Part shown: piece after piece, positions 1 through 61,599 of the stretch
Numbering within the stretch: the first letter of the stretch is position 1
How the letters are laid out: every line of letters begins with the position of its first letter
From: Stegostoma tigrinum
Taxonomy: Eukaryota
Reading direction: 5' to 3'
Length of the DNA stretch: 64,000 nt
Assembly (NCBI RefSeq): GCF_030684315.1
Contig: NC_081391.1
Location: forward strand, 20,606,629-20,670,628
Made by a program: the position numbers and the translations under genes
Notes under the pieces: generated by a model
What the model was told of the DNA's origin: nothing
The model's input: the letters and a program-made list of their open reading frames with translations, nothing else
Database searches by the model: none

Positions 1-201
1 CTCAGCTCCTCCTCCACATCCCCATCTCCTTTGTTCATTGGTGCCTGGGTGGATGGGCTATCCCTGATTGGCTGCCAGTATAATTGGTGACACCATTCCC
101 TGGTCGAATGCAAGATATCTCAGCAGTACAAATGCCAGAGGTTGTGGGTGTGAGGTTTAATTTGAGATTAGTCTAGGTTATAGTGAGTTGGAATAGTGAG
201 G
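1..201 (+). promoter_or_regulatory. Promoter / 5' UTR of copy 1
   Basis: Inverted CCAAT boxes (ATTGG) at 37, 67 and 83. The TATA position reads TACAAA (127) rather than TATAAA. Homologous to the other seven promoters. Confidence 0.7.
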
Positions 202-2423
202 ATGTCCTCCCAAGTGTGTCAGAACTACCACAAGGACTGTGAGGATGCTGTTAACAAGCAGATCAACCTGGAGCTCTATTCCTCCTATGTTTACCTCTCC
301 ATGGTGAGCCTGGTGCTGCATTCTGAAATTTATTTGGGCTGTGTTCTGTTACACTTCAATTGATGCCATTTTGTTAGGAATTGGGAGCTGGTTGTTAGTT
401 GTGTCGTTCATGCTTTTAGTGAGGAATGATGTTGAAGTAACTGTTGGTTACTGCACCTGACCTGCATTAAGACCTGATGTACAAAGCCCTTAACTGGGCT
501 CTTGTCTACTCCTGAGCTAGGAAGCCTGGGTTCAAGTTCTGCCTGTTCCTCAAAAACAATACTTTCCGATCCACTCGTTTGGGAGTTTTATCTGGCCCTA
601 ATTCAACTAAGGTCATATAACATAGTGGCAACCAAGTTGAAATTCCTAGACAAACCCATTTAGTCAACAAGTAACTGGTGAAATGTTGGGGATTCCCATG
701 GGCTTGTTAAATCTGTTTGAAAGTTGCTCCTTTTATGTCTATTTACATAGAATGTGCTTCACTTCCCCCAAAGAGCTTTAATGCACCAAGCTGCTTTCTA
801 AATCCCCCAAACCCAGTGAGATCCTGTGCCTGAGCTGTTCAGCAGCCTCTTGCACTGACTTTAAAGTTCCTGGCCACATTTTAATGGTTGAGCAAAGTAT
901 TAAATCTGCAGGCTAATGGGCAGATGGTCCTCATCTTATAATAGTTTCAGTTATCTGAATACACAGATTTAAGCTGCTATCTTGACCTGAATGAGATTCA
1001 GAAATTGTAGAAGTGAAATTGAACCATCCCTATCTTTTGGCTGCTTTTTGTCTATATACCTGGAGGAAGTTTCAGATTTCTTTCTGTTTTCTGGTTCTTA
1101 TTGATTTTAAAGAACAGTCTCTAACAAGCAAAAAAAATCCAAATCTAATTATTAAATAAACATGCTGTCATTGGTTTTTCTCCTTTCCAATAGTTCTCTC
1201 ATTTTGACCGGGATGATGTTGCCCTGCGTAACTTTGCTGAGTTCTTCAAGGAGCAGTCCCATGAGGAACGGGAACACGCTGAGAAACTGATGGCATTCCA
1301 GAATAAACGTGGAGGTCGTGTCCTCCTGCAGGACATCAAGGTTGGTGTATCCTCCTACATTGTAATGACCTGAACTAGATATGGATTTGAAGCTTGAATT
1401 CTGCTGGGGTAATGTTAAATGGCCCACACTATTCCTAGATACCTTTTTTCAATCTCATTGCTTTGCACTCCCCCTTCATTTTTCACTGAAACATCTGTCT
1501 CTTCCCTCCCTCCAGAAGCCAGAGCAGGATGAGTGGGGCAATGGTTTGGAGGCAGTGCAGAGAGCTCTGCAGATGGAGAAGGATGTGAACCAGAGTCTGC
1601 TGGATCTGCACAAACTCTCCTCTGATTGCGTGGACCCTCATGTGAGTCAAAAATGCTTAGCTGTGGTCTGAAGTCAGACAGACAGCACAGAAATGGACCC
1701 TTCAGTACATGCTGCATGTAAGCCCAAACTAAGCTAGTCCCACCTGCCTGTACCTGGCCCACTTCACTACCAACTGCCCCTATTCATTGTAGTTTTACAA
1801 TGTATAAAACGACTTGGTTGCTGTTCCTTCCACATGCAAACCACTCATCAAAAAGATGCTTATGTCCTTTATTTCTGGCTCCTTAAATTGCCACCTAATC
1901 CTAGAGAAAAGACACTTGCCATTTAACCCTATCTATACTCATGATCTTGTGACCCCTCAACCACCTATGCTCCAGTTGGAAAAACGTTCCAGCCTTTCTT
2001 AACTCCACCTTCCTTCTATACCAGACAACATCCCAGTAAATCTCTCCTGAGCCCCCTGCAGCTCACTGTCTCTCTGGGTGACTGGAACTGCACACAGTAT
2101 TACAAAAGGTGATTCACCAGTGCTTTGTCTTCCATCAACACCACATTATTTTCTCATTGGTTTTTCTCTCTCTATTAAACCATCTCGATACCACTAAATC
2201 TCCATTTCCAAAGGATGCGAATCTCCAAATGTTTCGGGAGAAATTCACTTGTATTTTTTTATTCTAGCTGTGTGACTTCCTGGAGAGGCACTACTTGGAT
2301 GAGCAAGTGAAGATGGTCAAGAAGCTGGGAGATCACATCACCAACCTGAAGAGACTGGGAGCCCCTGACAATGGCATGGGAGAGTACCTGTTTGACAGGC
2401 TCACCCTGGGGGAGAGTGACTGA
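202..2423 (+). CDS. Ferritin copy 1 (heavy chain B-like / middle subunit), 176 aa, 4 exons
   Basis: Exons 202-303, 1194-1340, 1516-1641, 2268-2423 with GT-AG phase-0 introns. Translates [34 protein letters not shown] / [31 protein letters not shown]...QDIK / [13 protein letters not shown]...DPH / [57 protein letters not shown] at 2543-2548. Confidence 0.95.
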
Positions 2424-3595
2424 ACTGACTGCAGGGAGCAAGCTGCTTGTGTTTATTACTGTGAAATGTGTAACTGAGGTATAGGGAGTGTGGTTTGTGA
2501 TGTGCATCGTGTGACACCTGGTTCTATTGTCAAATGTGCAATAATAAATCTGCTCCATATTAGACTGGATTCTTTCTTTCTTTCTCTGGGTGGTCTCCAT
2601 TTATTGCTTTCCAATCTGGACTGCTGACTTGCCAGAATGCTTTGCCGAGTGATCGATGCTGTGTAGTTAATCTGAAGCCTGTAACGTGCAATGATGGCCA
2701 ACATAAGAAGATGGTGTAACTGCCTGGTTTGTGCCCCTTAGCAAGTGTTGTTACTAATCCCCTCCCTACACAGTACGCTGACCTTAATCCTCCTTGGCCA
2801 GATGCTGCTGATCTTGGATGGCAGTCCTCGATTGGGACGGACCCAGCAAGGAAGAGCCCTGTTGCCACGAGTGACTAATTTCTCTCGGGTGGGGAATGTG
2901 TGGGGTTTTTTTTATATTTTAAAACTCTCCTCAAACACAAACTAACTCCTTTTATGAACTGGCTGGAGCCATTTTTGGATGTAGAGATGTGTTCGTGTTC
3001 CCCCTACCTCTGGGTGCTGCTCTTAGCTTCTCCCTGGGGCTGTCTTGCCCCTTGCCTTGTGTGGGGCTTGGTTCTGTTCTGTTCTGTTCTGATATTCTGC
3101 CCCACTATGAATCCTCTCAAAAGGGGGCAGTAGTTGCAGGAAATCATCCATTTCAGCAAAGCCTTCAGAGTATCGAAAAGGGGGGGGGGGTGGGGTGTTT
3201 GTTTTTCCTGGTCTACACAAGTTAACTTTTTTGTTTAAACCCACAGTCATGTTCCATTGACACTGAAACACAAACTAAGAAGCACCTTCATCAAAAAAAA
3301 CCCTCGAGTCTGTTGCATCCGTATGCTCAAACGGAATTGTTCTGGCAATACTATTAGGTGGCTGTGGGTCATCTTGATTTGCAATTTCAACAGCAAGCTT
3401 CAATCAGCTGATCTTTAGATGTAGGAGTTTAGTCAAGATACTGCAAATGCATAGTGTTGCAGTCCTCTCACCGAGGCATATAAATATTTTTGGAGGTGCT
3501 AAAAGCAAAGTCCTCATGCCTAAAGGACAATTCTCCTCACAAGTGGACAGTTTTCCATTTTCCATTTTCCACTTCCTCGTCGAAAGGGACAATTG

Positions 3596-60499: not shown

Positions 60500-60605
60500 T
60501 TTATTGTACAACAATCTGTATGCATCACATCAATCCTTTATTGCCCTTTCCCAGAAGGGGGGAAATGTCTGTAAGTATATCTTAAATTCACTTACCCACT
60601 TCCAG

Positions 60606-60761
60606 CTGTGTGACTTCCTGGAGAGACACTACTTGGATGAGCAAGTGAAGATGATCAAGAAGCTGGGAGATCACATCACCAACCTGAAGAGACTGGGAGC
60701 CCCTGACAATGGCATGGGAGAGTACCTGTTTGACAGGCTCACCCTGGGGGAGAGTGACTGA
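60606..60761 (+). pseudogene. Orphan ferritin exon 4 (copy 9 remnant or alternative last exon)
   Basis: Intact [10 protein letters not shown]...LTLGESD* with acceptor ttccag (60600-60605) and AATAAA 60863-60868. No exons 1-3 were seen between 56527 and 60605. Confidence 0.85.
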
Positions 60762-61599
60762 ACTGCCTGCAGGGAGTGAGCTTGTTGTCATGTGTCTGAA
60801 TGGGAGACCTGTAGAGACTTATCCTTTTTGTAGAAGCAGCTCATTGCTCTGTACAAAGTGTAAATAAATTGCTCAATAGTGGACCATGTCTTGCCTCCCT
60901 TTCTCATTTTAATCTTTGCTGTGAGTTGTACTGTACTTAGTTCCTGTTTGGTTCTGCTGCTGCTGATGGGAACTCGTTTCCCAATGGGCTGTGGGTTTCA
61001 CTATGTGGACCAGACAATAGTCTGCAGCGAGTTACCTTGGACAGGGGGAGCTGCTGCCCTGAGCCTTCCTGCATCCTGTAGTGGTTGACCCACCATATCC
61101 TCTGTAGGAAGGAATTAGAACTGATTCAGGAACAGTGAAGTGTGAGGAATGGCTCATGGACCTACCCTTCTTGACAAAAGGGCCAACTGAGCAGAAGGTT
61201 CTAAGCCATCAGGGAAACGTTGGTGGGGCGAGTGGGGGGGTTGTTATTGGGAAAACTGGTATTCCAGTAAGTTAAGCACAGCCCACAATTCAAGACACTT
61301 GTGGGTATGGAAAGAATAAACTTCAGGTTGTGCCTATGGAATTTTGCTTTCAATGCTACTTTAGTTGGCTTCATCAAGCTGTTTAGTATTACACTCTAAT
61401 GGAGTGGTTGGGACTTGAAACCACCCCTCCTAGACGAGGGGTAGGGATGCTGCCATTGCACCAGCTAGAGTTAAGCAAATAATACATGCTAAGTGTGCAT
61501 ATGGGTTGAGTCCAACTCTCAAATCAGAGTGAGATGTAAATTTCTTGACTTGTCAAGTTTATCAGTCCTTGTTAGACTCCTGGGAGCACTTTCAAATAA

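Follow-up and report, generated by a model that had tools for sequence, protein, structure and literature searches.

A tandem ferritin array with similar exons, divergent introns and no detectable IRE, likely part of an ovary-expressed shark gene cluster

Results

Layout of the array and state of its copies

The window, that is, the whole stretch of DNA analysed in this work (64 kb), carries on its + strand eight ferritin copies of four exons each, and an orphan exon 4. When exons 1 to 4 of copy 1 were used as queries, 8, 8, 8 and 9 matches were obtained, every one of them on the + strand, and the start codons of neighbouring copies are spaced by 3,739-10,922 bases. Two of the eight copies are broken and six (1, 2, 4, 5, 7 and 8) are intact, whose introns are GT-AG and whose open frames run to 176, 176, 175, 175, 176 and 173 residues, intact meaning here an open frame only, with TACAAA in copy 1 and no canonical polyadenylation signal in copy 5. 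The exon matches and the gene models thus bear out the tandem array with deaths of single copies that a preliminary description had recorded.

202..2423, + strand: ferritin copy 1, intact, 176 aa; exons 202-303, 1194-1340, 1516-1641, 2268-2423; AATAAA at 2543
11124..13457, + strand: ferritin copy 2, intact, 176 aa; exons 11124-11225, 12159-12305, 12493-12618, 13302-13457; TATAAA at 11062; AATAAA at 13576
17612..19968, + strand: ferritin copy 3, broken; exon starts 17612, 19106, 19459, 19814
18465..18827, strand not applicable: 47-base tandem repeat, 7.7 copies, within intron 1 of copy 3
26027..27722, + strand: ferritin copy 4, intact, 175 aa; exons 26027-26128, 26984-27130, 27227-27352, 27570-27722
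29766..32281, + strand: ferritin copy 5, intact frame, 175 aa; exons 29766-29867, 31389-31535, 31721-31846, 32129-32281
36741..38985, + strand: ferritin copy 6, broken; exon starts 36741, about 38069, 38397, 38833
47581..50914, + strand: ferritin copy 7, intact, 176 aa; exons 47581-47682, 49982-50128, 50422-50547, 50759-50914; TATAAA at 47516
54165..56526, + strand: ferritin copy 8, intact, 173 aa; exons 54165-54266, 55565-55711, 55887-56012, 56380-56526
60606..60868, + strand: orphan exon 4; coding part 60606-60761, open, with an AG acceptor; AATAAA at 60863

In copy 3 the first donor reads AT instead of GT, a stop interrupts exon 3 (19477-19479) and one base is deleted at the start of exon 4, while copy 6 has a 2-base deletion where exon 2 begins, and a stop at 38190-38192. 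No canonical AATAAA was found near the stop of copy 5, where AGTAAA stands at 32359; copy 8 has a shorter C-terminus of its own; and a search of 56600-60600 for remnants of exons 1-3 or of a promoter belonging to the orphan exon found none. The coding exons measure 102, 147, 126 and 147-156 bases, and this structure of four exons and three introns matches that of the vertebrate cytosolic ferritin gene (frame of ~531 bases). Processed ferritin pseudogenes were considered and ruled out, as introns are present in 24 of 24 cases, the arrangement is tandem and each copy has its own promoter. That the assembly falsely duplicated one or a few genes is scarcely credible: false duplicates would share introns, which the array copies do not, and lesions, repeats and flanks are private to each copy, in a window that contains no N.

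Recurring elements and the DNA between the copies

Several copies are preceded by a recurring upstream element, and retroelement remains are interspersed among them.

3677..5980, - strand: LINE retroelement fragment, 650-codon open frame with a reverse transcriptase domain (PF00078, E 6.5e-36)
8513..8993, + strand: recurring upstream element before copy 2
16212..16609, + strand: recurring upstream element before copy 3, 80% like that of copy 2
21561..21714, + strand: recurring upstream element before copy 4
29023..29322, + strand: recurring upstream element before copy 5
33874..36493, + strand: copy 6 upstream block, homologous to 40819-43032 upstream of copy 7
42469..42777, + strand: recurring upstream element before copy 7
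52360..52621, + strand: recurring upstream element before copy 8
59196..60500, strand not applicable: dispersed-repeat fragments just 5' of the orphan exon, with several matches elsewhere in the window
63704..63997, + strand: recurring upstream element at the window end

The element at 63704-63997 matches those of copies 2, 3, 4, 5, 7 and 8 at ~64-67%, each being single and in the same orientation; none was found before copy 6 or the orphan exon. As described previously, the window begins in a promoter and ends in this element, and both edges were matched to counterparts at other copies (bases 1-199 to their promoters). With a promoter at one edge and the upstream element at the other, the array probably continues both ways, and the terminal element suggests a further copy beyond the window end. 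The nine copies sampled here, orphan exon included, would be drawn from probably many more. Among 24 sequencing runs listed for words of this DNA, 4 contain at least half of the words, all from one sample that may be the source itself, while one small run under the same species label reaches a share of 0.20 and relatives reach 0.05-0.09; no RNA run was among them, and none serves as evidence here.

The block shared by copies 6 and 7 contains a 252-base island of 94% identity, on either side of which identity is 74-78%. We take the LINE fragment to be of the CR1 type, and the dispersed repeats at 59196..60500, for which a Pfam scan gave no match, to be Penelope-like. No further protein-coding gene was recognised between the copies among 44 stop-to-stop frames of at least 110 residues, all judged by eye and 2 of the 44 scanned against Pfam.

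The proteins are predicted H/M-type subunits by their active-site residues

The ferroxidase residues Glu24, Glu58, Glu59, His62, Glu104 and Gln138 are present at their exact positions in 8/8 copies (numbering as in the part of PMC4117605 used here). The nucleation residues Glu54 and Glu61, which together with the ferroxidase site characterise M-type subunits, are found in seven and in all eight copies, respectively, copy 4 having Lys at position 54. Position 57 is His, which we take to be H-like, except in copy 8, where it is Gln. The copies are therefore predicted to encode active subunits of the H/M type, a call made from the ferroxidase residues; the name ferritin itself rests on known ferritin motifs, on the gene structure and on the positions of the ferroxidase and nucleation residues.

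Could the copies have been kept because varied subunits mix in combinatorial isoferritin cages, as was first suggested? The intact proteins are 91-95% identical, 28 of 172 positions vary, with a cluster at 118-122, and the C-termini differ, all of which would suit such a diversifying array; co-assembly of ferritin subunits as close as these is likely. However, each of the 15 pairs that the intact copies form has a dN/dS far lower than 1 (0.15-0.46), at 17 of the 28 variable positions the variant is confined to a single copy, and the iron site shows no change at all. Although mixed cages would assemble, nothing points to selection for the mixture, and we regard this explanation as quite improbable.

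Promoters are shared and no IRE was found

The promoter of copy 1 is cut by the start of the window.

1..201, + strand: copy 1 promoter with its short 5' leader; three ATTGG boxes; TATA-like sequence TACAAA at 127

A TATA box lies 62-75 bases 5' of the ATG in 8/8 copies; its position was used to place the transcription starts, the DNA further upstream of copy 1 falling outside the window. Under common motif definitions, an antioxidant-response motif is present in 0/8 promoters and a metal-response-like motif in 3/8, a level too low for a claim.

An IRE otherwise marks vertebrate ferritin mRNAs. An Rfam scan of the window with E values up to 5 returned no IRE and just 4 matches, weak and at chance level, and a search for IRE-like hairpins found none near a start codon; the two loose hairpins on the + strand are both far from starts. 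This absence across all copies had been missed in the preliminary description. Judged by their sequence, the array genes would not be canonical IRE-controlled H, L or M genes, although the protein should work like one. An IRE in an upstream non-coding exon seems unlikely, since none appears anywhere in the 64 kb.

Exons are alike while introns and flanks have diverged

Our comparisons show that the coding parts are 92-98% identical across copies, with mean pairwise identities of 0.954, 0.923, 0.948 and 0.976 for exons 1 to 4, and that identity drops to about 0.25-0.33 within 10-30 bases past the exon borders. Two tests were applied to the introns, and 79 of 84 pairs gave no match above shuffles in either; the 3' flanks align in 7 of 36 pairs; no intron has been lost (0/24). 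Among the intact copies (15 pairs) dS is 0.123 (0.098-0.144) and dN 0.035, whereas shared flanking DNA has diverged by 0.22-0.45. The same disparity is seen in individual pairs: for copies 2 and 3 dS is 0.089, while four blocks upstream of them differ by 0.22-0.28, and for copies 6 and 7 dS is 0.098, with upstream DNA at 0.26 and 0.32. Four-fold sites are invariant over all eight copies in 35 of 49 cases, with a mean identity of 0.91, where saturation under the same codon preference would give 0.54; at the distance of the flanks (0.22-0.45), a star-tree model expects 21-9 invariant sites (P 3e-5 to 2e-16). Silent variation is unequally spread over exons 1 to 4 (4/25, 13/33, 3/30 and 1/35 variable sites; P 5e-4), and no excess was found at exon edges (8/36 vs 13/87, P 0.43). 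Third-position GC is 0.67, vs 0.42 in introns, which fits GC-biased conversion but also selection on codons.

Kinship among the copies is mosaic

The nearest relative of a copy switches at exon borders. Intron 2 of copy 1 is 90% identical to that of copy 8, while its 3' flank is 92% like that of copy 2; copy 2 in turn has its upstream DNA in common with copy 3, and copy 6 has its upstream DNA in common with copy 7 and a 3' flank 80% like that of the orphan exon. In a four-gamete test 46 of 66 site pairs were incompatible, but leaving out CpG sites reduces this to 3 of 6; the signal is therefore weak and was not counted as support for conversion.

The preliminary description had seen birth and death in this array. 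In a plain form of this model, independent old copies would stay alike through strong selection on amino acids and silent sites. The two dead copies and the orphan exon, the low dN/dS, the high third-position GC and the weakness of the four-gamete signal after CpG removal all agree with it. Yet it requires that the 35 invariant four-fold sites were frozen while introns lost all likeness, and it is the dead copy 6 whose dS towards the remaining copies is smallest (0.074-0.106), at a dN/dS of 0.51-0.92. It also leaves unexplained the switching of kinship at exon borders and the 94% island, and we consider it unlikely. Exon-limited homogenisation is favoured instead, because silent divergence (0.12) is far below that of the flanks, the introns are mostly unalignable and kinship switches at exon borders. 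Two hallmarks of concerted evolution by interlocus gene conversion are thus found here: silent sites that have diverged much less than the linked non-coding DNA, and mosaic kinship.

The template for such homogenisation could have been RNA: ferritin mRNA of the oocyte would be reverse-transcribed by resident retroelements and the cDNA would rewrite germ-line exons. Likeness is indeed limited to exons, silent variation is lowest in exon 4, the array contains a LINE frame for reverse transcriptase and ovary expression has been reported for the shark cluster. Against this, introns have not been lost, the 3' flanks belong to the mRNA and yet rarely align, and uniformity does not rise cleanly towards the 3' end, exon 2 being more variable than exon 1. 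Intron 2 and intergenic DNA have been exchanged too, for which a DNA donor is needed, and a DNA-only model yields the same pattern in HMA4 paralogues. An RNA template is accordingly very doubtful.

Discussion

In this work, we have described a ferritin array which, with a probability of roughly 65%, is part of an old shark cluster whose exons are kept alike by DNA-level gene conversion and which provides iron-independent bulk ferritin to the egg. By analogy with published shark clusters, the array is likely of shark origin and part of a giant ovary-expressed ferritin cluster. From the pattern of divergence, the copies are likely old and homogenised exon by exon via gene conversion, not recently multiplied. 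Their role would likely be a bulk, iron-independent supply of ferritin to the egg, again by analogy.

We propose an ancient origin of the copies, in which unequal crossing-over multiplied a unit made of promoter and gene. Purifying selection would hold the exons similar enough to keep exchanging sequence, whereas the introns would drift below the similarity needed for exchange and drop out, silent sites being carried along with the exons; now and then, single copies would die or be deleted. A common CCAAT/TATA promoter and a 5' leader of ~30-45 bases would leave control to transcription only, and output would therefore scale with copy number. The place of use may be the ovary, as for the Greenland shark cluster. 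Ferritin mRNA is abundant in fish oocytes, and the absence of an IRE suggests an iron-independent dosage system serving large yolky eggs. Dosage had already been put forward as the purpose of the array, and we accept it as likely.

Clusters annotated as FTH1/FTL in the Greenland and the great white shark have >100 copies, are ancient and ovary-specific, and are common to two lineages ~250 million years apart, according to the main text of a preprint (bioRxiv 10.1101/2024.09.09.611499). The novelty claimed earlier for this array, a lineage-specific expansion measured against mammals, does not hold beside them. Like the array studied here they are tandem and consist mostly of full-length genes, >85% there vs 6/8 here. 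In its single paragraph on the clusters, the main text covers copy number, age, synteny and ovary expression (10.1101/2024.09.09.611499); a term search of the full text shows that 'gene conversion', 'IRE' and 'iron' are absent from it. The expansion itself is thus probably already in print for sharks, and the array probably not new. What the present analysis adds is the missing IRE and the likely homogenisation of exons, both testable, neither of which was found in print for shark ferritin arrays in the literature searched. Another Greenland shark genome study is said to report an expansion of FTH1b, on which we do not rely.

Other ferritins share parts of this picture. A ferritin isoform of the Xenopus oocyte is not known to carry an IRE. 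The egg or yolk ferritin of Schistosoma lacks one (PMC1488847, in the part used here); both would be made outside IRE control, as the products of the array would be, but they belong to other phyla or classes and are encoded by one or few genes and not by a homogenised array. The Atlantic salmon M1-M3 genes (teleost ferritin M) have, like the array, four exons and three introns, with a frame of 531 bases in M1, and their chains contain all six ferroxidase residues as well as the nucleation residues Glu54 and Glu61, which the array has in 7/8 and 8/8 copies. In contrast, all five salmon genes have an IRE, and they make up five isoforms, not a dense array (PMC4117605, sections used here).

Exon-limited interlocus gene conversion, with silent sites alike and introns diverging, is also described in the portions used here of work on protocadherin clusters (PMC3966226), and has been modelled in the tandem HMA4 paralogues of Arabidopsis halleri, likewise a metal-handling dosage array (bioRxiv 10.1101/2025.10.29.685298, in part). 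HMA4 has three young copies, whereas the array described here is probably very large, old and vertebrate, with introns beyond alignment.

As a long shot, ferritin in sharks could resemble ribosomal DNA, with hundreds of genes stocking the egg free of iron control and kept uniform exon by exon for >250 million years, retroelement-copied oocyte mRNA forming part of the template. Near-identical coding sequence in this array does not mean recent duplication, and dating shark ferritin expansions by coding sequence, or linking them to the traits of one species, would mislead. In a slowly evolving vertebrate, a large array with unique introns beside shared exons offers a clean setting for measuring how long conversion tracts are and how far their length depends on similarity.

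Structure of the array

The ferritin array is real. Comparison of the window with itself revealed four short blocks that recur, all on the + strand, and exons 1–4 of copy 1 used as queries gave 8, 8, 8 and 9 matches in the window, respectively; the ninth exon 4 match is an orphan exon beyond copy 8. Gene models with splice sites contain open frames of 173–176 residues in six copies (1, 2, 4, 5, 7 and 8), while copies 3 and 6 are broken. The start codons lie 3,739–10,922 bases apart (mean 7,709), the 5΄ end of the window falls within the copy 1 promoter and the 3΄ end within a recurring upstream element, a non-coding segment that also precedes six of the remaining seven full copies, once each and with unchanged orientation. 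Exon matches, gene models and window ends thus agree with the preliminary description of a tandem array. That an assembly artefact produced the copies is hardly credible, because the introns are unique.

Features of the array (window positions)
3677–5980, − strand: young LINE fragment, 650-codon open frame with a reverse transcriptase domain
8513, 16212, 21561, 29023, 42469, 52360 and 63704 (starts), same orientation throughout: recurring upstream element
17612–19968, + strand: copy 3, broken (bad donor, stop, 1-base deletion)
18465–18827: minisatellite within the first intron of copy 3 (dead), 47-base unit, 7.7 copies, 97% alike
+ strand: copy 6, broken (2-base deletion, stop)
47018–47232 and 53621–53737: imperfect palindromes ahead of copies 7 and 8, respectively
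60606–60761, + strand: orphan exon 4, open, acceptor and polyadenylation signal kept (the feature runs to 60868)

The recurring element (150–400 bases, 60–80% alike, one per unit) sits 0.7–5 kb 5΄ of the start codon and is a candidate enhancer. The palindromes are apparently inverted ends of a dispersed repeat.

Predicted products

We take the products to be ferritins from their motifs, together with gene structure and residue positions. A study of salmon M ferritins (PMC4117605) describes a four-exon structure, an M1 frame of 531 bases, ferroxidase residues Glu24, Glu58, Glu59, His62, Glu104 and Gln138, and Glu54 and Glu61 as nucleation residues. All eight copies carry the six ferroxidase residues at these positions and Glu61, and seven carry Glu54; since both sets of residues are present, the subunits look M-like, with predicted iron oxidation and nucleation. 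The earlier suggestion that slightly different subunits could provide combinatorial isoferritins found no support: selection for such mixed cages is improbable given a dN/dS of 0.15–0.46, invariant iron sites and the fact that 17 of the 28 variable residues are private to one copy.

Exons are probably homogenized, introns and flanks are not

Mean exon identity is 92–98%, and the 15 pairs of intact copies have a dS of 0.123 and a dN of 0.035. At four-fold sites mean identity is 0.91, against 0.54 at saturation, and 35 of 49 such sites are invariant across all eight copies; silent drift at the rate of the flanks would leave only 21 to 9 invariant (P from 3e-5 to 2e-16, computed with a simple star model). 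Identity drops to chance level within 10–30 bases of the exon borders, and each of two tests placed just 5 of the 84 intron pairs above shuffles. Only two intron matches exceed 100 bases, one between the second introns of copies 1 and 8 (~90% identity) and one covering part of the first introns of copies 2 and 3 (67%). Promoter identity is 76%, and the recurring upstream element diverges by 0.32–0.45 in the four pairs measured. The same disparity appears within pairs: copies 2 and 3 have a dS of 0.089 versus 0.22–0.28 across four upstream blocks, and copies 6 and 7 a dS of 0.098 versus 0.26 and 0.32 in upstream DNA.

Kinship among the copies is mosaic and incompatible with any single duplication tree. 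Copy 1 resembles copy 8 in intron 2 and copy 2 in the 3΄ flank. Upstream DNA is common to copies 2 and 3 and, separately, to copies 6 and 7, and the 3΄ flank of copy 6 is shared with the orphan. A 252-base non-coding island (36052–36305 versus 42170–42422), 94% identical inside older duplicated DNA of 74–78%, is a probable recent conversion tract. The share of variable silent sites differs between exons (4/25, 13/33, 3/30 and 1/35; P 5e-4), which fits a separate history for each exon. Two results count against conversion: the four-gamete signal depends mostly on CpG sites, and silent variation shows no exon-edge effect. Dead copy 3 has private changes among the fewest (five, equal to copy 2) despite its three lesions, so that either its death is recent or its conversion is ongoing.

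We propose that an old unit comprising the upstream element, the promoter and the gene most likely multiplied by unequal crossing-over, that protein-level selection would have held exons alike enough for continued sequence exchange, and that introns would have drifted beyond its reach, with the occasional death or deletion of a copy. Birth and death, as first put forward for the array, holds for turnover, which is real given two dead copies of eight and the orphan, and is most likely superimposed on concerted evolution. As the sole process it is unlikely: it would require silent sites to be frozen while introns lose their likeness, and it leaves the mosaic kinship unexplained. Homogenization through an RNA template is more doubtful still, with no intron lost, 3΄ flanks alignable for no more than 7 of 36 pairs, and exchange that extended to non-coding DNA. 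Concerted evolution by exon-limited exchange has a precedent in a model of the HMA4 tandem genes, in which (bioRxiv 10.1101/2025.10.29.685298) purifying selection and similarity-dependent conversion yield this very pattern; the mechanism is therefore already known.

Promoter, leader and predicted use

No IRE (iron-responsive element) was found in the 64 kb with Rfam at E up to 5, and a permissive search for hairpins on the + strand gave two candidates (6723 and 59287), both distant from every start codon. Each copy has a TATA box 62–75 bases 5΄ of the ATG (TATAAA in seven, TACAAA in copy 1) and 2–5 ATTGG boxes, against 0.46 expected. From these inferred, rather than mapped, start sites the leader would be ~30–45 bases long and lack an IRE. 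In contrast, all five salmon ferritins carry one, according to PMC4117605. If the start sites are right, the genes described here would therefore evade translational iron control, and with a shared promoter their output would track copy number and transcription. In copies 1, 3, 4, 6 and 7, but not in 2, 5 and 8, a short tandem duplication adds ~13 bases directly before the ATG, a split that runs counter to the relationship between copies 2 and 3 in upstream DNA.

The array is very probably a further member of the giant shark ferritin cluster (bioRxiv 10.1101/2024.09.09.611499), so the expansion itself is already known. The look of the repeats and of the protein, and the fit to the published description, suggest that the window is shark DNA. 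That cluster is reported to be ovary-specific, and zebrafish and coho salmon oocytes to hold ferritin mRNA as one of their most abundant messages; by analogy, a likely use would be the stocking of oocytes. The cluster report's main text mentions neither conversion nor IREs, and a search of a library with few subscription journals returned no further paper that links shark ferritin to concerted evolution or to the expansion of gene families. The missing IRE and the exon-limited homogenization, which we did not find in print, have good sequence support and are directly testable.

The orphan exon

The orphan differs from the other copies at 2–5 positions per 132 bases, as close as the intact copies are to each other. 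Ahead of it lie repeat fragments, with no remnant of exons 1–3 or of a promoter. Copy 8, whose own exon 4 encodes a shorter C-terminus, could use the orphan as an alternative last exon. A 457-codon stop-to-stop frame (59388–60761) crosses repeat DNA and enters the orphan exon in frame, probably by chance.
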